In this document: positions 2,351 to 28,549 of the stretch, in pieces
Position numbering within the stretch: position 1 is the first letter of the stretch
How the letters are laid out: each line of letters opens with the position of its first letter
Assembly: GCF_003790525.1 (NCBI RefSeq)
Contig: NZ_CP033635.1
Reading direction: 5' to 3' (one strand)
From: Escherichia coli
GTDB lineage: Bacteria > Pseudomonadota > Gammaproteobacteria > Enterobacterales > Enterobacteriaceae
DNA length: 64,000 bases
Position numbers and translations under genes: made by a program
The notes under the pieces: generated by a model
What the model saw: only the letters and a program-made list of their open reading frames with translations
The model's database searches: none
Told to the model about the DNA's origin: nothing

Positions 2351-3015
2351 TAAATCGGGAACAGAGGATGGTTAAACAGCCGCGTCAACCAGCCTGCGGC
2401 GTTGGCGTCGCTTAACGCGCCGCGTCCGGCATAGGAGATGCGGGCATCGGCGATCCGCTGGGAGGAAACCGAGTTGTCGTTCTGGATGTCGTCGGCGCGC
2501 ACCAGGCCGCTTAAGCGGATGTACTCATCGCCCTGGTTGAGGGTCAGCCATTTTTCGCCGCGAATTTCCAGGATGCCGTTAGGCTGCACCGCATGGACGG
2601 AAACGGTGATCTCCCCGCGCAGGCTGTTCTGCTGCTGGGAAGTGGCACTGCCGTCAAAGTCGCGGTTGGCGTCGATAGAGCCGGAAAGCTTATCTTTGGT
2701 GTGTCCAAAAATCGTTGGCGCGCCGATATCGACGGTGTTGCTTTTGCCGAAGTTGGTTTTCGCCTGTTTGCTCGACTGGGTGGATTCTTCGAGGATCACC
2801 GTCAGGATATCGCCCACGCGGTAAGCCCGCCGGTCGGCAGTTAGCGACCAGTTGTAGCCGGTTTCAAACACGCCCCCGGCACGCCCGTCTGCCGGAGGCG
2901 GCGCTTCGGTGGTTGGTGGCGCAAAGTATGCGTCGTCTTTTTTGACCAGAATGGCCTGCGATTCACACCCGCTAAGCAGGGGAAGCAGCGCCACCAGCCA
3001 GAGATAATTTTTCAC
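2350..3015 (-). CDS. lfgH: Flagellar L-ring lipoprotein FlgH (likely GTG start at 3015; ORF track extends to 3090)
   Basis: FlgH-like; lipobox LLSGC after a hydrophobic signal segment. Confidence 0.88.
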
Positions 3016-3039
3016 GTTCTGCCTGTTTAAATACAGTGA

Positions 3040-3095
3040 GTTATGTGCTCTTGTAGGTCGGATAAGACGTGTCAGCGTCGCATCCGACATTTCGG
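3040..3095. repeat. REP element
   Basis: gtaggtcggataagacgtgtcagcgtcgcatccgac palindromic unit between lfgH and lfgG. Confidence 0.7.
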
Positions 3096-3097
3096 CC

Positions 3098-3883
3098 TTA
3101 CAGCGTCTGACTGATGTACTGCAACATATCGTCCGCAGCCGACACCATTTTGGCGTTCATCTCGTACGCCCGTTGCACCGTAATCATCGCCACCATCTCG
3201 TTGACGATATCCACGTTCGAGCCTTCGAGCGCGTTGTCCTGCAAGGTGCCAAGCCCATCTTCGCCCGGTACGCCTTCGGTCGGCTGACCGCTGGCAGCGG
3301 TTTCCAGATACAGGTTGTCGCCCTCGGCGGAAAGCCCCGCCGGGTTAGCGAAGTTCACCAGTGTCAGTTGCCCTAACTCGGTCACATCGCTGTCGCCGGG
3401 TAAGATCGCCGTCACCGTGCCGTCCTCACCAAACGCAACGTTAGTCGCCCCCGCCGGAACGTCGATTTCCGGTTGTAACGGCAAACCCTGCGAGTTAGTC
3501 AACACGCCGTCGGCGTTCACCTGCAAGTTGCCATCGCGGGTATAGGCGATATCGCCGTTAGCCTTTTGCACCTGCAAAAATCCCTGTCCCATAATGGCGA
3601 CATTCATGGCGTTGTCGGTGGTCTCAACGTTGCCTTCGGTGAAGGTTTTCTGGGTACCGACAATGCGTACGCCGCTCCCGAATTGCAGCCCGGTCGGCAT
3701 GATGTTGTTCTGGTCGAGCATCGCGCCCGGCGCTTCCTGGGTCTGGTAGAACAGATCCTGAAACATCACCCGATCGCGCTTGAAGCCGGTGGTGTTAACG
3801 TTGGCGATGTTGTTGGCAATCGCGCTCATTTCAGCATCCTGCGCCGAGAGGCCGGTTTTGCTGATCCATAGTGCTGCGTTCAT
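3098..3883 (-). CDS. lfgG: Flagellar distal rod protein FlgG
   Basis: 261 aa; conserved rod-protein N-terminus (ANNIANVNTTGFK) and C-terminus. Confidence 0.93.
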   Translation of the reverse strand: MNAALWISKTGLSAQDAEMSAIANNIANVNTTGFKRDRVMFQDLFYQTQEAPGAMLDQNNIMPTGLQFGSGVRIVGTQKTFTEGNVETTDNAMNVAIMGQGFLQVQKANGDIAYTRDGNLQVNADGVLTNSQGLPLQPEIDVPAGATNVAFGEDGTVTAILPGDSDVTELGQLTLVNFANPAGLSAEGDNLYLETAASGQPTEGVPGEDGLGTLQDNALEGSNVDIVNEMVAMITVQRAYEMNAKMVSAADDMLQYISQTL

Positions 3884-7487: not shown

Positions 7488-8225
7488 ATGAGTTTTCAAT
7501 TTTGCAGGCGGAAGTTTTATTTCCTCCTGGCGCTGGCCTTACCGGGCTACGCCGCCGTCCATCCCGTGCAACATAGCGCGCGGGAACAAATCAACGCCCA
7601 GGTACTGAATACCGCGAGCCAAAAAATTGAATCGCTGGCGCAGCAGCGGCAATGGCATGACTATCGCTACACCTTTAAGGTCTATATTCCGTCGCAGATT
7701 GCGACCGCCGCGCCCTGTACAACGTCACCCGGCGTCACGCTGACGTCGCCTGCGGAAATCGCCCTTAACCGGATGAACTTCACCGTCAGTTGCCCGCAAA
7801 GCTGGCAGATGAACGTCGCGGTGCGCCCGGATGTTCTGGTACCGGTGGTGATGGCAAAGTCACTGGTTGCCCGCGATACGCCGCTCACGGCAAATGATGT
7901 GGAGCTGAAGCCCTACAACGTCAGCGCCCAGCGTCGCGATGTGTTGATGGAGCTCGATGACGCAATTGGTTTAAGCAGTAAGCACGCGTTGCAACCGGGC
8001 AGACCAATCACCAAAGAAGAGCTGGTTTCGCCAGTGCTGGTCGAACGCGATCAGCCGGTGATGATTGTTTACCAGAGCGCGGGGATCACCGCCTCGATGC
8101 CCGGCGTGGCGCTGAAAAATGGTCGCAAAGGGGAAATGGTGAAAGTACGTAACGTCAGCAGCCAGCGGGTCATTAGCGCGAGGGTGGCGGAAAGCGGCGT
8201 GGTGACAACGGTAAGCGCGGAGTAA
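7488..8225 (+). CDS. lfgA: Flagellar P-ring assembly chaperone FlgA (ATG at 7488; ORF track GTG at 7467)
   Basis: Signal peptide FYFLLALALPGYAA; FlgA-like C-terminal domain; divergent from lfgB. Confidence 0.85.
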   Translation: MSFQFCRRKFYFLLALALPGYAAVHPVQHSAREQINAQVLNTASQKIESLAQQRQWHDYRYTFKVYIPSQIATAAPCTTSPGVTLTSPAEIALNRMNFTVSCPQSWQMNVAVRPDVLVPVVMAKSLVARDTPLTANDVELKPYNVSAQRRDVLMELDDAIGLSSKHALQPGRPITKEELVSPVLVERDQPVMIVYQSAGITASMPGVALKNGRKGEMVKVRNVSSQRVISARVAESGVVTTVSAE

Positions 8226-8239
8226 TTTGCGCAGGCGAT

Positions 8240-8267
8240 TAAAGTTTTGCCGCCTGTTAACCGCTTT
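8240..8267 (+). promoter_or_regulatory. Possible sigma-28 class promoter (-35 TAAAGTTT, weak -10) upstream of lfgM
   Basis: Perfect TAAAGTTT at 8240-8247; downstream -10 region matches GCCGATAA only partially. Confidence 0.3.
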
Positions 8268-8304
8268 ACCGGAGTAACCCACCCAATACCGAGACGAGGT
8301 TACG

Positions 8305-8583
8305 ATGAAAATCACCCCGACGATGCCAGGCAATCGCCCGACAGCCACAATGGCAGGCTCCAGTCAGCCGCGCAAAAGCACGGCGACCACCGCCACGACG
8401 CTGAGCGCCGACGACATTACCCAGGCGGGATTGCAGTCTGCCCAGCAAACGCTGAACGACCAGCAAGAGAGCGATATCGACAGCGACAAAGTGGCGCAAA
8501 TGCAAGCGATGCTGGCGTCCGGCAGCCTGCAAGTGGACACCGAACAGTTAGCCAGCGACATGCTGAGTTTTTTCCAGAACTAA
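8305..8583 (+). CDS. lfgM: Anti-sigma-28 factor FlgM
   Basis: 92 aa; FlgM-like C-terminal region. Confidence 0.8.
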   Translation: MKITPTMPGNRPTATMAGSSQPRKSTATTATTLSADDITQAGLQSAQQTLNDQQESDIDSDKVAQMQAMLASGSLQVDTEQLASDMLSFFQN

Positions 8584-8595
8584 GAGGCCGATGAA

Positions 8596-9024
8596 GTGAG
8601 TATCCGGTTACAACAGGTGAAGGCGTTGTTGCAGGGCATTCGTGACGACGACGCACTGTACGATTCCCTGCGCGAACTTCTCCAGCGTCAGCGGATGTGC
8701 ATGATTCGCCGCGCCAGCGAAGATCTGCTGGCGGTAAACGACGAGATAACGCAGCACTATGAGCAGTTGCATGGGCATAGCCATCAGCGGCACAGCCTGC
8801 TGAAAATGCTTAATGTCAGTGTAAATCGTGACGGTCTGGCGCAGGTTTTTGCCTGGCTTCCGGCTGTGCAAAAAGCAGCAGCACAACAGTTGTGGCAACG
8901 CCTTGAGCAAAAAGCGGAACGCTGCAAAGCCTACAACGACAAAAACGGCGAGCTGTTGATTCGCCAGTATGAATTTATTCAGTCTTTTTTAGGCGGCGAA
9001 ACAGATTTTCTGTACCAGGAATAA
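8596..9024 (+). CDS. lfgN: Flagellar export chaperone FlgN (GTG start)
   Basis: 142 aa; FlgN-like; follows lfgM. Confidence 0.75.
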   Translation: MSIRLQQVKALLQGIRDDDALYDSLRELLQRQRMCMIRRASEDLLAVNDEITQHYEQLHGHSHQRHSLLKMLNVSVNRDGLAQVFAWLPAVQKAAAQQLWQRLEQKAERCKAYNDKNGELLIRQYEFIQSFLGGETDFLYQE

Positions 9025-9101
9025 CGACAATTCCTTCCCCCATCGCGGAAACGGATTTTCCGCCTGATTCTCAATCCCTTGTTTTTGATTACAAAAATTC
9101 C

Positions 9102-9117
9102 CGGCACGCTTATTGCA
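9102..9117 (+). promoter_or_regulatory. Sigma-54 promoter (cGGCACG-N4-TTGCA) driving the variable-region operon
   Basis: cggcacgcttattgca matches the -24/-12 consensus TGGCACG-N4-TTGCW at all positions but the first. Confidence 0.7.
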
Positions 9118-9151
9118 CATTCCGCAAAGTAATAAAGACTGGAAGCCACCT

Positions 9152-10081
9152 ATGAGTTTTATTGAACGTTACGAACCGGAATACGTGCGCAATTTTATGA
9201 CGCAATATCCCGATTCGCCTTTGTACGTCCGCAAGGTCTGGAAGAATGAGATTCGCCAGAGCCTGGCATTGACCGATATTGAAAGTTGCAAAGCGGTGCT
9301 CAACGATGCCAGGGCCTTTGATTTACAGCTCACCTACCGCCCTGTGGAAGACAATGCCGCCGAGCTATCCGCGCGCGATGCGATAGTAAACCAGGCCATT
9401 TTGAGCACCCTTACGCTCCCCGATTTAACCCCGGAGCTTTCCCTGTATGCCGTCGGGATTTTGCTCTCCCGCGCCAGTAAAATGCCGGGCAGAGACGGAG
9501 ATATTCTTGCCCGCTTGACGACGCTGCCACAGGCGCTGGGGGATCATGCACAAAAAGGCACGCTACAGGCACAGTTCGCCCAACTCCCACCCGTGCCACA
9601 ACTGGCGCGCCAACTGGTGACGCTGCTCGGGAGTTTTGCGTTTGACTGGTCGATTTTGCCGGAAAGCCCGCGCAAAGCCTCGCTACCGTTGCAGGTGACT
9701 TTGCTGACGTTGCATGACGCCAACAGCGAAGCTTTGTTGCAACAGCAGCTTAAGGTGCAGTGGCAAACCACCTGGCAACAGCATTTTGCCGCCGCGCCGT
9801 GGATGATGCGCAACTGGCTGATTTACCGCGTTTATCACGACGTGATTGGGCAGGCAGACGGAGCAGATTATTGCCCGCTGGTGTGTGATTTTTATCTCAT
9901 CCGCACGTTAATCAGTTTATGGACGCTGGATGGTTCACCGCTGCGGAAGGAGGATATTTTCGCCCTTTTTGCGGTGTTTGAACGCTGGCGAGAGAGTGAA
10001 AATGCTGCGGCGATTCGCCAGCAGCTCCAGTCGTTATGTGCGGCAGAGCCGCTGCTGTCAGCATTTTCGCTGCTGACGTGA
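9152..10081 (+). CDS. Hypothetical protein, Flag-2 variable region (ATG at 9152; ORF track TTG at 9113 overlaps the promoter)
   Basis: ~310 aa ORF downstream of the sigma-54 promoter; no family recognised. Confidence 0.6.
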   Translation: MSFIERYEPEYVRNFMTQYPDSPLYVRKVWKNEIRQSLALTDIESCKAVLNDARAFDLQLTYRPVEDNAAELSARDAIVNQAILSTLTLPDLTPELSLYAVGILLSRASKMPGRDGDILARLTTLPQALGDHAQKGTLQAQFAQLPPVPQLARQLVTLLGSFAFDWSILPESPRKASLPLQVTLLTLHDANSEALLQQQLKVQWQTTWQQHFAAAPWMMRNWLIYRVYHDVIGQADGADYCPLVCDFYLIRTLISLWTLDGSPLRKEDIFALFAVFERWRESENAAAIRQQLQSLCAAEPLLSAFSLLT

Positions 10082-10089
10082 GTCGCTCT

Positions 10090-10215
10090 GTGCGCGCTTT
10101 TCCCCTCCCCCTAACCCTCTCCCCAAAGGGGCGAGGGAACCGATCGAGCACGGTGTTAAAATCGGCGCTGGTTTTCTCCCTCTCCCTGTGGGAGAGGGTC
10201 GGGGTGAGGGCATCA
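10090..10215. repeat. GC-rich imperfect-palindrome repeat (boxC-like: ccctctcccc...gggagaggg)
   Basis: Related copies at 21405-21455 and 31840-31885. Confidence 0.5.
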
Positions 10216-10259
10216 GCACGCATATTCATCACATTCACCCATTAACTCACCCAAACACC

Positions 10260-12704
10260 ATGCCAACACCAACCATTATCAAAACACTCGCCACCCAGCG
10301 CGAAAAACCGTCCGTCAGCGTCATCACGCCAACCTGGAACCGCAGCGCATTCCTGCCGTACCTGCTTTATATGTACCGCTATCAGGACTACCCGGCAGAC
10401 CGCCGCGAACTCATCATCCTCGACGATTCCCCTCAAAGCCATCAACACATCATCGACCGCCTGACCAATGGCACACCGGAAGCCTTCAACATCCGCTACA
10501 TCCATCACCCGGAAAAACTGCCGCTGGGCAAAAAACGCAATATGCTCAACGAACTGGCGCGCGGCGAATACATCCTCTGCATGGACGATGACGACTACTA
10601 CCCGGCAGATAAAATCTCTTACACCATCGCTATGATGCAAAAAAACCGGGCGCTCATCTCCGGTTCCGACCAGATCCCCATCTGGTACAGCCACATCAAT
10701 CGCATCTTTCAAAGCCGCAGCTTCGGCCCGCATAACATCCTCAACGGCACCTTTTGCTATCACCGTAACTACCTGAAAAAGCACCGCTACGATGACGATT
10801 GCAATTTAGGCGAAGAGAAAAGTTTCACCGACAATTTCAGCGTTAACCCGCTACAACTGCCCGGCGAGCGCACGATTTTGTGTATCTCGCACAGCCACAA
10901 CACCTTTGATAAAGACTTTATTCTCGGGGCCAGCACGCCAGTAAACGCGACGCTTACGGATATCGTCCGCGATCCGCTGCTCCGCAATGCTTATCTGAGT
11001 CTGCATAACGCCACTCATCATCAGGCGATCCAGTATCAGGCGATCGATCAGATCGTTCTGCTGAATCTGGATAAACGCCCGGATCGCTTACAGCAGATCC
11101 GTGAAGAACTCACATTGCTGCATATTCCTCCTGAGAAGATCACCCGCCTTGCCGCCAGTGAAAATGAAAACGGTCAACGGGGCCGCCAGCAATCACACTT
11201 GCAGGCACTGCGTCTGGCGCAACAACGCGGCTGGCAAAACTACCTGCTGCTGGAAGATGACGCGGTTATTCTCAAACAGGAGAAACATATTCAGGTGCTG
11301 AACGCGCTGCTGGCGAGCCTGGCGAAAATTCCCTGGCAGGTGATGATCCTCGGCGGCGAAATTTCGCAGGGAACGATGCTAAAAAGTTTGCCTGGGCTGG
11401 TGCACGCGCGGGACTGCCGCAAAGTGTGCGCTTATCTGGTGAACCGCCGCTACTACCCGCAGCTGGCGCAGCAGATGAACAACGATGAGCATTCGCTGGA
11501 AGACGGCTGGCAGCCGCTGCTGCGCACCGACAAATGGCTGGCCTGTTACCCGAGCCTTTGTTATCAGCGACCGGGCTTTAGTGATATCGAGAAAAAAGCG
11601 ACTGATAACATTAACCACTACTTCAATAAGTTACCCGTAGCCACCAAGCCATCTACATTACCTATCGCCGATACCATCGGCTTTTTTATGGAAACCTCAT
11701 TCCACTACGCGCTCTACCGCCCAATCATCACCGCCCTGCAGGCGCAGGGGCAGAGCTGTACGCTGGTGATCAATGACCGCGTATTTAAACCATTTCTGGA
11801 TGAAATGCTGGCGACGCTAAAAAGCATCGACGATCCGCAGCTCAAAGGAATGCGCTTATCTGAAATGCAGGCACACGGTCAGCGAGTAAAATGCCTGGTC
11901 AGCCCCTATCACACGCCTGTGCTCAGTGGCCTTTCCCCCCTGAACATTCGCGCCATGTACGGCTTAGCCAAAGAAACGTGGAACCACGCCGACTGGAACC
12001 GTTTTTATCAGCGCATTTTGTGTTACAGCCACTACAGCCAGCGGGCGCTGGCACATTTCGGCAGCGCAATAGTGGTCGGCAACCCGCGCTTCGACGCCTG
12101 GCATAACGCCACGTTCGACCGCGCGTTGCCGGAAAATATCAAACTGGACGAGCGTAAACCCACCGTACTCTACGCCCCAACGTTTGGCGCATTAAGCTCC
12201 CTGCCCCACTGGGCAGAAAAATTGGGGCGCTTAAGCGATGATGTGAACCTGATTTGCAAACTGCACCACGGCACCTGCTCGCGCCCGGAAGAAGCTGCAT
12301 CGCTGGCCCTGGCTCGCAGGCATTTAAAACAGCGCACCGACTCCGCCCGTCACACGCTGGCGCTGCTGGCAAAGGCCGATTACGTGCTGACCGATAACAG
12401 CGGCTTTATTTTCGATGCTATTCACGTTGATAAGCGGGTGATCCTGCTCGACTTTCCGGGCATGGCAACGTTGCTCGACGGTGAGAAAAGTTACTCCACG
12501 CCCGAAAGCGCCGACCAGCGAATCCGCGAAATATTGCCGGTGGCTCATGATGTTGCGGAACTGCGTTATTTGTTGTCAGAGGCGTTTGACTGGGGTGCGG
12601 TGCAGGCGCGGCTTACGAAGATTCGTCATCACTATTGCGATGCGTTTATGGATGGCAAGGCGGGAGAACGGGCAGCGATGGTGATTGTGGAGGCACTAGG
12701 GTAA
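10260..12704 (+). CDS. Multidomain transferase: N-terminal GT2 glycosyltransferase, central GT25-like domain, C-terminal TagB/TagF-like CDP-glycerol glycerophosphotransferase domain
   Basis: N-terminal VSVITPTWNR...ILDDSP...MDDDDYY (GT-A/DxD); central LNLDKRPDRL (GT25-like); C-terminal VLYAPTFG...KLHHG...VLTDNSGFIFD (Glyphos_transf-like). ATG at 10260. Confidence 0.7.
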   Translation: MPTPTIIKTLATQREKPSVSVITPTWNRSAFLPYLLYMYRYQDYPADRRELIILDDSPQSHQHIIDRLTNGTPEAFNIRYIHHPEKLPLGKKRNMLNELARGEYILCMDDDDYYPADKISYTIAMMQKNRALISGSDQIPIWYSHINRIFQSRSFGPHNILNGTFCYHRNYLKKHRYDDDCNLGEEKSFTDNFSVNPLQLPGERTILCISHSHNTFDKDFILGASTPVNATLTDIVRDPLLRNAYLSLHNATHHQAIQYQAIDQIVLLNLDKRPDRLQQIREELTLLHIPPEKITRLAASENENGQRGRQQSHLQALRLAQQRGWQNYLLLEDDAVILKQEKHIQVLNALLASLAKIPWQVMILGGEISQGTMLKSLPGLVHARDCRKVCAYLVNRRYYPQLAQQMNNDEHSLEDGWQPLLRTDKWLACYPSLCYQRPGFSDIEKKATDNINHYFNKLPVATKPSTLPIADTIGFFMETSFHYALYRPIITALQAQGQSCTLVINDRVFKPFLDEMLATLKSIDDPQLKGMRLSEMQAHGQRVKCLVSPYHTPVLSGLSPLNIRAMYGLAKETWNHADWNRFYQRILCYSHYSQRALAHFGSAIVVGNPRFDAWHNATFDRALPENIKLDERKPTVLYAPTFGALSSLPHWAEKLGRLSDDVNLICKLHHGTCSRPEEAASLALARRHLKQRTDSARHTLALLAKADYVLTDNSGFIFDAIHVDKRVILLDFPGMATLLDGEKSYSTPESADQRIREILPVAHDVAELRYLLSEAFDWGAVQARLTKIRHHYCDAFMDGKAGERAAMVIVEALG

Positions 12705-12714
12705 AACGCGCAAG

Positions 12715-12830
12715 TGCCTGATGCGCTTCGCTTATCAGGCCTACGCGACCTTGCAATGTATTGAATTTGTAAGGATTTGTAGGCCGGTTAAGGCGTTTAC
12801 GCCGCATCCGGAACGAACAACGCACTTAAC
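12715..12830. repeat. REP/BIME elements
   Basis: gcctgatgcgcttcgcttatcaggcctac ... gccggttaaggcgtttacgccgcatccgg. Confidence 0.8.
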
Positions 12831-13029
12831 TACCCTCTGATTTCAAACTCATCGCTTTATGACTGGTGAATCGGTAAAAGTCGTAGATTGTGGGGGAGCG
12901 ATCTTTATGAATTCTGAAAAAACCTGAATCTTGCTAAACATATTGCTTATCATAAATATAGGTTACACACTATAACAATTATTGCGTAATTTAACATTTT
13001 GTTAAAATTGATAGGGCATAAACGATAAC

Positions 13030-13851
13030 ATGACTTATGATAAAAAAGTAACTTCCGGTACAACAAGCCAGAAACAAAACAACATTGTCACTCAAAAAAT
13101 ATCTCGCCCAAAGGAATTGTTTCTATTATTTTGGGTTGATGAGTCCGGTGATAGCCGACGTTCTATTTTTGAAGAAGCATGTCTGACGCGTTATTTCAAC
13201 ATCCTTTACTCCCCCGAGTATAAAAAAGAAACACAGATAGTTTACCATTTATCAATTAACACATTTAATCAAATCAAAGAAATATTAGAAATCTTTATAA
13301 ACAAGAATGGAGGTATAACCAAAGCAAAAGTTAAAGAAGTCAGTTTATTCTCACATGGGGGGCCAATTCATGGTCCTACAACCTCAGACTCTGTAAATAC
13401 ACCTTCCGTGCCTAAATACCCACAACAAATGGACATAATCGGAGGATGGGATTCAATTGATTTTAACTGGTCAAATAACGCTATGTTTGTTATGTATGGT
13501 TGTCGCACTAGTTATGCAAGTGATGATTCAGGACAAGGTTTTGCCAGTAAATTATCCCTATTAGATAATTTTAAGGACGTTAATGTCTGGGGACAAACAG
13601 AAAGTACTTATCCATCTTATTTCCCAGATATTAGGACAACTTCGATTATGAGGTCAATAAATATAGGTTGGTCTTTTTCACCAACATACATGGTTGCCAG
13701 TTCTGAAGGTCAAGGATGGGATGCCTTATTTCCGGATGATAAAAATCCACTAAAGTCTCTCCCTATGCAGTGTTATAATAATGGGAAATTGATTTTAACC
13801 TGCGATCAAAGCAGTTTTAATGATCACCGGAAGAATAAATCAAATGATTAG
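13030..13851 (+). CDS. Hypothetical protein, strongly AT-rich gene; possible alpha/beta-hydrolase-like fold (tentative)
   Basis: 273 aa; AT-rich codon usage unlike neighbours; motifs LFLLFWVDESGDS, VSLFSHGGP, MYGCRTSYASDDSG, C-terminal DH; own AT-rich upstream region. Confidence 0.55.
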   Translation: MTYDKKVTSGTTSQKQNNIVTQKISRPKELFLLFWVDESGDSRRSIFEEACLTRYFNILYSPEYKKETQIVYHLSINTFNQIKEILEIFINKNGGITKAKVKEVSLFSHGGPIHGPTTSDSVNTPSVPKYPQQMDIIGGWDSIDFNWSNNAMFVMYGCRTSYASDDSGQGFASKLSLLDNFKDVNVWGQTESTYPSYFPDIRTTSIMRSINIGWSFSPTYMVASSEGQGWDALFPDDKNPLKSLPMQCYNNGKLILTCDQSSFNDHRKNKSND

Positions 13852-14383
13852 TATTATATTGAGAAGCTTGATTCTATTATTCATGATAATAGTGTATCCA
13901 GATTATAATAAAAACCTACCTGCCTTTGAAGTATATGGGGAAAATGACATACTTAAGGATATGGTTATTAATATGAAAACTTATAGTAACCATAGTAAGA
14001 AAAACTCTTCCCCAACAACTATAGTGCAAACCATCCTTTTTAAAGGGAATATACAGCAAGTTTTTGAAAGCAACGATATGGGTGCAGAGAGCTTCTTTTT
14101 TTCTTATAATAACAAGGTTGAAACGCTGGTAACAGACGCTTTCTTTTTGAATAGAAAATTAGACAAACTGCATGATGCAAATATTTTTGAAGTTATAAAG
14201 CATGGGGAAAATATCGTTATTAGATATTACAAATGCAAAATTGAATATATGAAAAAAGAAAAATCTATCGAAATAGAGATATCAACAAACAAAAACAGTT
14301 ATTTTAGCAAAAATGGAATAAAACAAAAAGACACAAATAAATATAACACATATTTCTTCAATTACTTTGAGGCTCAAAAATAA
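13844..14383 (+). CDS. Hypothetical membrane-anchored or secreted protein, AT-rich; partner of upstream gene (ATG at 13844; start overlaps upstream stop)
   Basis: N-terminal hydrophobic segment MISIILRSLILLFMIIVY; Lys/Asn-rich; ATGATTAG start/stop overlap. Confidence 0.5.
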   Translation: MISIILRSLILLFMIIVYPDYNKNLPAFEVYGENDILKDMVINMKTYSNHSKKNSSPTTIVQTILFKGNIQQVFESNDMGAESFFFSYNNKVETLVTDAFFLNRKLDKLHDANIFEVIKHGENIVIRYYKCKIEYMKKEKSIEIEISTNKNSYFSKNGIKQKDTNKYNTYFFNYFEAQK

Positions 14384-14394
14384 ATTTTATTTTG

Positions 14395-14790
14395 TCATGC
14401 TTTCCCCCTAATCACCTCAATAATCCCCGTCGTCGACACCGACGGCGTGCGGGGGAAATACACTACCTCACAAATATACGCGAAGCTGTCAAACTTTCCT
14501 GCCCAGTCATCGCCCATCACTAAAATATCCGCACTGTACCCCCGCAGATACTCCGCTTTCTGCTCCAGCGACTCTTCCAGAAATACGCCATCCACGCACG
14601 CCAGCCCGGCGATGATCGCCATGCGGTCATCCTGAGGGTAAACCGGTGCCCTGCCCTTTTTGGCGATGTTCAGGGCATCGGACGATACGCCGACCAGCAG
14701 CCGTTCGCCCAGCGTGCGGGCGCGTTGTAAAAGGCGCAGATGACCGACATGAAACACATCGAAGGTGCCGAAGGTGATGACCGTTTTCAT
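14395..14790 (-). CDS. Cytidylyltransferase, glycerol-3-phosphate cytidylyltransferase (TagD)-like
   Basis: 131 aa; ITFGTFDVFHVGH (HxGH nucleotidyltransferase motif); start 2 nt after lfiJ stop (TAGCCATG). Confidence 0.8.
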   Translation of the reverse strand: MKTVITFGTFDVFHVGHLRLLQRARTLGERLLVGVSSDALNIAKKGRAPVYPQDDRMAIIAGLACVDGVFLEESLEQKAEYLRGYSADILVMGDDWAGKFDSFAYICEVVYFPRTPSVSTTGIIEVIRGKA

Positions 14791-27967: not shown

Positions 27968-28465
27968 TTATACAATGATACGCTCCCCGGCACTAAAATC
28001 CGTTACGTCCCCCGCCCAATCGATGGGATATAACCCCTTCGCGACATCGCGATGAAACGTTGAGAATGGCCAATCACTCACTTGCTTTACCCAGCCATGT
28101 TTTACTGGATTTATATAAATATAATCAACATGATGGCGATAGTCTTTGGTATTGCGGATGGCGTGCTCCCAAAAACGCGGTTGCCAGATATTTTGCAATC
28201 CACAAGCATGGGTGAACTGTTTTTTAATCTCCCGCCAGCGAGAGGAAAAATCATCATCGCTTTCGGGTAATGTCCAGATACAGTGCATATGCTCCGGCAA
28301 AACTACCCAGGCGTTAATTTCAAAAGGTCTGGCTCGCTTAACGTTAATAATGACTTTACGGAGCATCTGGAACTGAGCGGTCAGAAGATGGCTTCGACGA
28401 TTTCGTAGGTTAACCGTGAAAAACCAGGTTCCCCCTTTGATGTAATAACGACGATATTCAGACAT
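27968..28465 (-). CDS. rayT: REP-associated tyrosine transposase RayT (YafM), IS200/IS605 TnpA-like
   Basis: 165 aa; matches the RayT/YafM sequence as recalled; flanked by REPs. Confidence 0.9.
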   Translation of the reverse strand: MSEYRRYYIKGGTWFFTVNLRNRRSHLLTAQFQMLRKVIINVKRARPFEINAWVVLPEHMHCIWTLPESDDDFSSRWREIKKQFTHACGLQNIWQPRFWEHAIRNTKDYRHHVDYIYINPVKHGWVKQVSDWPFSTFHRDVAKGLYPIDWAGDVTDFSAGERIIV

Positions 28466-28549
28466 GGCGACTCCTTTTTCTCAACGGTAAGAAGAAAAGG
28501 AAAGGTCGGCAATGAGGTGATGGAATAACGGGAAAGCGGCTCGCATAAA

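Follow-up and report, generated by a model that had tools for sequence, protein, structure and literature searches.

A predicted caspase-fold toxin and its signal-anchored partner in the Flag-2 variable region of Escherichia coli, a probable orphan type VI secretion effector-immunity pair

Why do two small AT-rich genes for hypothetical proteins lie among the lateral flagella genes of Escherichia coli, and what do their products do? The question was raised by a window of 64,000 nucleotides (the whole stretch of DNA analysed, from contig NZ_CP033635.1 of assembly GCF_003790525.1), an E. coli chromosome segment that is 99.9% identical to strain SMS-3-5 and spans the Flag-2 (lateral flagella) locus. 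Gene A (13030..13851, + strand) encodes a protein of 273 aa (RefSeq WP_000220508.1, 'hypothetical protein'), and gene B (13844..14383, + strand) encodes one of 179 aa (WP_000623467.1). Neither accession was mentioned in the literature searched. The site is Flag-2 variable region 1 (VR1), a low-GC hot spot for cargo integration (De Maayer et al., 2020). An earlier note, made from the letters alone, had pointed out the cassette and likened its layout to effector/immunity or enzyme/partner modules. We propose, with a probability of about 0.75, that the cassette is an orphan cargo effector-immunity pair of a type VI secretion system (T6SS) that landed in this hot spot. It is highly likely that A and B are a toxin-immunity pair of the T6SS/Rhs world, and the effector/immunity layout suggested by the note is supported by the Rhs fusions, the vgrG adjacency and the signal-bearing partner proteins found among homologs.

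The structure of protein A was predicted with AlphaFold2. The model built on a 67-sequence alignment reached a pLDDT of 93 and a pTM of 0.89, compared with a pLDDT of 62 when 6 sequences were used. The best match in the fold comparison was Tce1, followed by clan CD peptidases (legumain, caspases, gingipain and the TcdA/B protease domain), and a Foldseek search of AFDB50 returned only proteins named 'uncharacterized', 'DUF4347' or 'RHS core', then caspase-family proteins. In clan CD the catalytic dyad consists of a His and then a Cys, each placed after a hydrophobic strand. The predicted catalytic residues of A are arranged in the same way: His109 (codon CAT, 13354..13356, + strand) directly follows strand 99-107, and Cys158 (codon TGT, 13501..13503, + strand) directly follows strand 147-156. 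In an alignment of 154 relatives, His109 was kept in 137/139 of the sequences that covered it, Cys158 in 148/150 and the neighbouring Gly157 in 150/150. A therefore reads with high confidence as a clan CD fold with a His109/Cys158 dyad, that is, as a predicted caspase-fold cysteine-peptidase toxin. One relative, P0017 (286 aa), has both predicted catalytic residues replaced (His to Tyr and Cys to Asn) in an otherwise retained domain with its N-terminal extension, and is likely a catalytically dead variant. Family profiles added little. The only Pfam match of A was a weak one to DUF4347 (E 6.3e-4, 20 bits, residues 70-178), a profile that reached E<=1e-3 in only 2 and E<=0.1 in only 7 of 67 A relatives, and some relatives in the AlphaFold database are named DUF4347. 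Searches of A and B against NCBIfam, PADLOC and PHROGs gave nothing useful, with no PADLOC match at E<=0.1, and no relative came up when PDB sequences were searched with A or with the A-family profile.

The relatives of A indicated what kind of protein it may be. A word-indexed search found 7 of them, and 338 cluster representatives, none of which has been characterised, were obtained with an exhaustive profile search. In many of these the A domain forms the very C-terminal end of a protein 800-3576 aa long. The RHS repeat-associated core (TIGR03696) ended directly before the A domain in four of five long proteins tested (core end/domain start 1312/1316 in P0064, 2479/2480 in P0131, 1076/1097 in P0135 and 581/597 in P0130), and in Rhs-type members the core motif ...NNPxxxIDPDG[KR][DE], of DPxG type, abuts strand beta1 of the domain. 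This is the canonical position of a polymorphic toxin domain. The part of A shared with the Rhs C-terminal domains, as given by the profile-search match ranges, is residues ~28-262 (13111..13815, + strand), and A is the stand-alone form of an Rhs/T6SS polymorphic toxin domain. The family ranges from Enterobacterales and Acinetobacter to Rhs proteins of Bacteroidota. A related-locus search with a narrower A alignment found only Superficieibacter and one Prevotellaceae metagenome-assembled genome. In Superficieibacter the A homolog lies between nfo and fruA, which is a non-flagellar context.

The stand-alone relatives were linked to VgrG spike proteins. The gene for P0007 (40% identity to A, locus L007) starts 1 nt after the stop codon of a complete 782-aa VgrG, and upstream of those for P0012, P0015 and P0014 stand gene fragments whose ends reach or overlap the start codon. 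The upstream products in all four cases end in one module of ~60 residues (consensus ..LQFHFxDDDxxPYAxTxY..G.TDxxG.T..), which is triplicated in one of them and received no Pfam or NCBIfam assignment in these searches. The module was placed at L019 26050-28455, L029 15699-18209 and 20049-22565, L007 276-2624, L024 5001-5324 and in L012-L014. When the module alone was searched against the protein database, fragments of VgrG-type proteins from Salmonella salamae, Acinetobacter and Psychrobacter were found. This word-indexed search returned no E. coli protein, whereas a local hidden Markov model (HMM) search of the fetched loci did find the module in E. coli. At the Acinetobacter locus the module protein is followed by a 303-aa member of the A family (E 9.5e-84) and then by a 231-aa protein with a hydrophobic N-terminus. 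Having been reached from the module alone, this locus independently confirms the association.

A possible docking element was seen at the N-terminus of A. Stand-alone members of the family carry ~27 extra N-terminal residues ending in ..QKI[T/S]R.KE, which are absent from the Rhs-fused forms. In A this stretch (13030..13110, + strand, ...NIVTQKISRPKE) was modelled as a beta-hairpin with lower pLDDT. Other effectors encoded after module-bearing VgrGs, among them an M35 metallopeptidase and proteins of unknown type, start in a similar way ('xECVKEQKIT / QKITR'-like), as in ..ECVKEQKITDHFK of the E. coli M35 peptidase, ..ECVKEFIVSDKFK of a metV-cluster cargo gene and ..KMQKITRKK of S. salamae. 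We infer that the N-terminal stretch of A is a VgrG-docking tag, and loading of A through the VgrG module is slightly favoured. The VgrG C-terminal module and the N-terminal cargo tag would give a handle on effector loading by the metV-type T6SS of E. coli. At locus L012, a metagenomic contig, the A-B pair is followed by a gene (2492-3109) for a 205-aa protein with a faint match to Peptidase_C58 (YopT-like), possibly a second effector of the same vgrG island.

Protein B and its coupling to A were then considered together with the partners of A homologs. The two genes share an 8-nt stop/start overlap, ATGATTAG (13844..13851, + strand), read directly from the sequence, and a 187-aa form of B from the in-frame ATG at 13820 is annotated in some genomes. 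An A-like gene followed by an overlapping small open reading frame was found in the window and in L004, L005, L007, L008, L012, L013, L014, L024 and L016. The overlap is 8 nt in L004 and L005 and 14-29 nt in L007, L008 and L012-L014, in keeping with the co-translated pair that the earlier note had suggested. The B family was recognisable by its HMM in seven of these loci. The same HMM did not detect the partners of the distant A homologs (L014, L016 and L024) or other hot-spot proteins. These distant partners are unrelated to B in sequence and yet begin with a signal or anchor, and immunity families differ between subfamilies. B itself matched no Pfam or NCBIfam family. Its homologs are few and in each case lie after an A homolog, with stop and start overlapping. 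The hydrophobic anchor or signal sequence noticed earlier at its N-terminus was evident (15-residue Kyte-Doolittle mean 2.72), whereas A has no hydrophobic segment (maximum 0.65).

The partners also suggested where the pair acts. In all A homologs examined the partner has a hydrophobic N-terminus, with a lipobox Cys in four and Asp at +2 in two. Asp at +2 after the lipobox Cys is an inner-membrane retention signal in E. coli. A toxin without a signal beside a signal-bearing partner is typical of T6SS effectors that act in the periplasm and of their periplasmic immunity proteins, and B belongs with these signal, lipobox or anchor proteins, which indicates action in the periplasm; we regard a periplasmic site for A as rather likely. 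B diverges faster than A between related loci (51% vs 71%, 37% vs 67% and 28% vs 40% identity), and immunity proteins generally evolve fast relative to the toxin.

From these observations the following course can be proposed. The ~27-residue tag of A would dock on the ~60-residue C-terminal module of certain VgrG proteins, and T6SS firing would bring A into the periplasm of a neighbouring Gram-negative cell. There the ~235-residue clan CD cysteine-peptidase domain with its His109/Cys158 dyad, the presumed toxic part, would cut a peptide or protein substrate of the envelope. Translation of B would be coupled to that of A through the overlapping start codon; once exported, B would stay at the membrane through its signal anchor (close homologs being lipoproteins) and would neutralise A in sibling cells. 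Toxicity, periplasmic site, tag-module interaction and neutralisation by B are all predictions from sequence and modelled structure. They give two hypothetical proteins a testable function. Should they be right, a caspase-fold toxin with a periplasmic immunity protein would be a new enzyme class among envelope-targeting T6SS effectors. More tentatively, A may found an uncharacterised class of antibacterial T6SS/Rhs effectors, namely caspase-fold peptidases at work in the periplasm of Gram-negative rivals. Their targets could be, for instance, stem peptides of peptidoglycan, the link between Lpp and murein or some essential protein of the envelope. They would be blocked by inner-membrane-anchored lipoprotein immunity and recruited to VgrG by their short N-terminal 'QKITR' strand, for which a ~60-residue VgrG module not described before, and common to several cargo effectors of E. 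coli, would be the docking site.

Because the literature leaves the T6SS status of SMS-3-5 unsettled, its usual T6SS regions were inspected directly (aspV, yncG-yddH, part of pheV, metV and pheU). Other carriers of the cassette were informative as well. In the carrier UPEC-455U/190220 the metV T6SS cluster has a complete complement of core genes (tssB, C, K, L, hcp, tssH, tssA, PAAR, tssF, G, J and E). Its tssM (ImcF-related, L029 25885-29213) is annotated as frameshifted, which may mean an inactive system in this isolate or an error of assembly. Three VgrGs of this genome end in the module (E 1e-22 to 1e-24), two in the metV cluster and one in the yncG island, and the cargo genes that follow them begin with a similar N-terminal stretch. 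B2 carriers possess both a type VI cluster and matching VgrGs. At the nucleotide level the island vgrG 3' end was present in ~12% of all genomes vs 36 of the 60 best-matching carriers. The cassette and this vgrG 3' end have a union of 697 genomes, from which an overlap of up to ~117 of the 144 carriers follows.

Several points weigh against an orphan T6SS pair. No T6SS, vgrG, hcp, PAAR or Rhs gene was found in the 64-kb window, as the earlier note had remarked in saying that no delivery domain or system was attached; a route can nevertheless be inferred from relatives that are Rhs-fused or lie 3' of vgrG. In SMS-3-5 no T6SS genes were found at the aspV, metV, pheU and yncG-yddH sites, the four usual sites that this search covered. 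The remaining 24 of the 60 best-matching carriers, including SMS-3-5, have no module-bearing vgrG 3' end, so that delivery from an SMS-3-5-type genome is unsupported, and the co-occurrence of cassette and vgrG is confounded by phylogeny. The tag-module interaction is deduced from gene order and a short motif, B has no lipobox and its topology was read from hydrophobicity and homologs, and the promoter/terminator scan found no consensus sigma-70 site on the + strand upstream of A. Moreover, Tce1 (PA0256) and Tce2 (PA2372), putative DUF4347 cysteine-protease effectors of the Pseudomonas aeruginosa H3-T6SS (PDB 9qpe; Nat Microbiol 2026, PMC13323088), are Hcp3-loaded, have no immunity gene and showed no toxicity in the cytoplasm of E. 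coli. The toxicity of Tce2 in yeast depends on its catalytic Cys, the C115S mutant has a phenotype, and both proteins look anti-eukaryotic (PMC13323088).

Some of these points would be accounted for if the pair were an orphan kept for defence only in SMS-3-5-type genomes, where B would protect against A-armed neighbours and A would be undelivered and decaying. The T6SS-free canonical sites and the missing vgrG 3' ends agree with it, as do an allele (L002) that keeps B but not A and a 236-aa protein (P0005), encoded in some E. coli genomes, which joins the N-terminal half of A to the C-terminal half of B, evidently through a deletion within the cassette that would inactivate both genes. However, carriers of different lineages have an intact A with 99.7-99.9% identity, and the sites inspected in SMS-3-5 were the usual ones. 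We take this as a serious possibility of less than even weight; since it concerns the role in one type of genome, it is compatible with an orphan T6SS pair, and in the SMS-3-5-type genome the pair may be mainly immunity with an undeliverable toxin. The likeness to Tce1 raises two further readings. A might be loaded inside the Hcp tube and not on VgrG, given that Tce1 was solved within Hcp3 rings and that its C-terminal domain (~200 aa) is near the ~235 aa of the toxin domain of A. This is unlikely, because in six independent loci the homolog follows vgrG or a VgrG module and never hcp, and because the N-terminal tag is present in the stand-alone forms and missing from the Rhs forms. That A acts in the cytoplasm or on eukaryotic cells as proposed for Tce2, with B not being immunity, would fit the yeast toxicity of Tce2 and the lack of immunity genes beside Tce1 and Tce2. 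It is made still less probable by the coupled partner gene, which always has a signal, lipobox or anchor and is kept in all subfamilies examined, and by the persistence of B as an orphan and its faster evolution.

Three other functions received very little credence and were rejected on the points against each. The earlier note had found motifs of A loosely reminiscent of an alpha/beta-hydrolase (a strand and SHGG elbow, a later Asp and a C-terminal His); as such, A would be a lipase/esterase effector with Ser108 as nucleophile. Ser108 is indeed kept in 133/139 covered sequences, and one neighbour in the AlphaFold database, at rank 33, is named 'alpha/beta hydrolase'. A is nonetheless caspase-like, since the strong structural matches are all clan CD peptidases and both His109 and Cys158 are nearly invariant. 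An SHGG motif is present; its His, however, is the predicted catalytic residue, and the motif is not a serine nucleophile elbow: a bulky hydrophobic residue stands two before Ser108, which leaves no Sm-x-Ser-x-Sm elbow. His266, the C-terminal His, is kept in only 43/64 covered sequences and lies outside the Rhs-borne domain. A service to Flag-2, as a flagellin-modifying enzyme or a flagellar export substrate, might be read from the VR1 location beside flagellin methylase, glycosyltransferase and tagD-like genes, and De Maayer et al. (2020) speculated on Flag-2 secretion of toxin-like VR1 cargo. The cassette is however missing from ~90% of Flag-2-positive E. coli, and the site also occurs empty; the homologs lie in non-flagellar settings, between nfo and fruA, after vgrG or on Rhs proteins; and A and B show no similarity to flagellar or glycosylation families. 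The cassette is not a Flag-2 component, and export by the second flagellum, as suggested for toxin-like VR1 cargo, gained no support from the analysis. A two-gene anti-phage or abortive-infection system of a caspase-like protease and a membrane protein could be suspected from the AT-rich island in a variable hot spot and from the clan CD CHAT and SAVED-CHAT proteins, structural neighbours of A with a role in phage defence. No PADLOC model matched and no sensor domain was found, and the Rhs C-terminal position and vgrG adjacency of the homologs indicate inter-bacterial toxins instead.

The favoured reading, an orphan T6SS effector-immunity pair, was compared with known systems. In the Tae/Tai pairs (Tae1-4), an effector without signal peptide lies next to an immunity gene whose product has a signal peptide or lipobox, and orphan immunity genes are frequent. 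The A/B layout resembles these periplasm-acting T6SS pairs. The enzymes differ, as Tae proteins have a papain-like NlpC/P60 fold with Cys before His, whereas A is caspase-like with His before Cys; peptidoglycan is no more than a possible target for A. In enteroaggregative E. coli (EAEC), a transthyretin (TTR)-like C-terminal extension of VgrG1 binds the cargo effector Tle1. The A family is similar in having a small C-terminal add-on on VgrG and the cargo gene immediately 3', with binding between module and tag presumed here.

Closer relatives by fold differed from A in sequence or in setting. Clan CD peptidases (legumain C13, caspases/metacaspases C14, gingipains C25, clostripain C11, and TcdA/TcdB and MARTX C80) share 8-17% identity with A, in which no sign of autoprocessing, an inositol hexakisphosphate (InsP6)-binding site or a defined S1 pocket was seen. 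Among DUF4347 effectors, only Tce1 and Tce2 have been studied. Identity is only ~14%, with no sequence-level PDB match, and unlike Tce1 and Tce2 the A family is linked to vgrG or Rhs and always comes with a signal-bearing partner. This setting implies a role against bacteria and outside the cytoplasm. The A/B family is an uncharacterised, immunity-paired branch that is probably directed to the periplasm. The Tox-Caspase class of polymorphic toxins, a computational prediction (Zhang, Aravind et al., 2012, PMC3482391), likewise has a caspase-like fold with H and C catalytic residues and lies C-terminal-most in Rhs-type toxins. It occurs in Bacteroidetes and Gammaproteobacteria, with T6SS among its delivery routes and with adjacent immunity genes, listed as Imm36 and Imm57 (PMC3482391). 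B matches no Pfam family, and A matches no Pfam toxin family beyond the weak DUF4347 match.

The boundaries of the island were determined by blastn comparison with an empty site and other alleles, and by composition. In E. coli O111:H11 (L018) the glycosyltransferase stop is followed by a repetitive extragenic palindromic (REP) cluster, ~31 bp and the tagD stop. On this comparison the AT-rich island was set at about 12818..14403 (+ strand, ~1.59 kb, GC 0.325), close to the 12840-14394 given by the earlier note and slightly wider; it stands in place of ~31 bp of the intergenic site that is empty there, where the glycosyltransferase and tagD-like genes converge. The REP cluster (12705..12817, no strand assigned) comprises two REP units 3' of the flagellin glycosyltransferase stop and aligns to the empty site up to 12817. 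As it is also present there, it lies outside the island and marks its left boundary. It matched 12,175 places in 5,379 E. coli genomes and gave sub-threshold Rfam matches to the REP-derived ES036/naRNA4. The factual observations of the note, composition among them, were confirmed: GC is 0.53 over the window, 0.29-0.37 over 12800-14450 and 0.54-0.65 on either side; GC at third codon positions is 0.30 in A and 0.31 in B vs 0.62-0.75 in seven neighbouring genes; and Lys, Asn and Ile together make up 22% of A and 34% of B. The AT-rich upstream region also proved real, as a leader and presumed promoter region (12818..13029, + strand). Its first ~100 bp (12818-12921) is common to all filled alleles whatever their cargo; the match of alleles L017, L002 and L004 with the window reaches ~12920. 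No flanking direct repeats or integrase were found at the island, internal repeats were short chance-level matches, and the opposite strand of the cassette has no open reading frame of at least 50 aa.

The distribution of the cassette was measured in 5426 complete E. coli genomes. The tagD-lfiJ segment, which marks Flag-2-positive genomes, was found in 1276 of them, and the full cassette in 127 of these (~10%), with some part of it in 144; the other Flag-2 loci are empty or filled with other cargo. The cassette was horizontally acquired, as the note had supposed, given its AT-rich composition, its restricted distribution and the existing empty site. Carriers make up ~2% of complete E. coli genomes and include extraintestinal pathogenic (ExPEC) lineages and the colitis model strain NC101. 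At the same point L004 has a pair of diverged genes (amino-acid identity 71% for A' and 51% for B') with a duplicated tagD remnant and a fic gene (7500-9096), L002 (TUM18530) has three unrelated small genes and an orphan B of 98% identity with A lost, and L017 (sequence type ST131, strain 4224) has three other small genes. If the effector-immunity reading is right, the variable-region cargo here would be inter-bacterial weaponry in a recombination hot spot and not flagellar equipment. The alternative cargo (L002 4257-5985 and L017 2584-4972) includes a 126-aa Cys-rich protein with signal-peptide proteins of 166 aa and 212 aa, and another set of 182 aa and 115 aa. None of these proteins matched an NCBIfam model, and some of their genes may be further orphan immunity genes. 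The record L003 (NZ_CP104632.1, 'plasmid pHNAH212872-2', 100,861 bp) contains a Flag-2 segment from flgN to fliE-like genes with hot-spot cargo, and its RefSeq protein accessions are mostly those of the chromosomal strain TUM18530. The record may be misassembled, or chromosomal DNA may really have moved onto a plasmid.

The genes flanking the island were also inspected. On the left (9113-12704) lie a flagellin lysine-N-methylase of the FliB type (NF038110, E 6e-10, below cut-off) and a large multi-domain flagellin glycosyltransferase of ~815-838 aa with an N-terminal GT2 domain. On the right (14395-14790), convergent with the island, lies a gene for a glycerol-3-phosphate cytidylyltransferase-like (tagD-like) protein (TIGR01518, E 4e-33, below cut-off). 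These flanking VR1 genes fit a proposed glycan containing glycerol phosphate on the lateral flagellin. Just beyond Flag-2, rayT, encoding a REP-associated tyrosine transposase, is found on the - strand at ~27970-28470 (L001 30269-30766). In SMS-3-5, the yafQ toxin gene of the dinJ-yafQ pair (252902-253179) is frameshifted.

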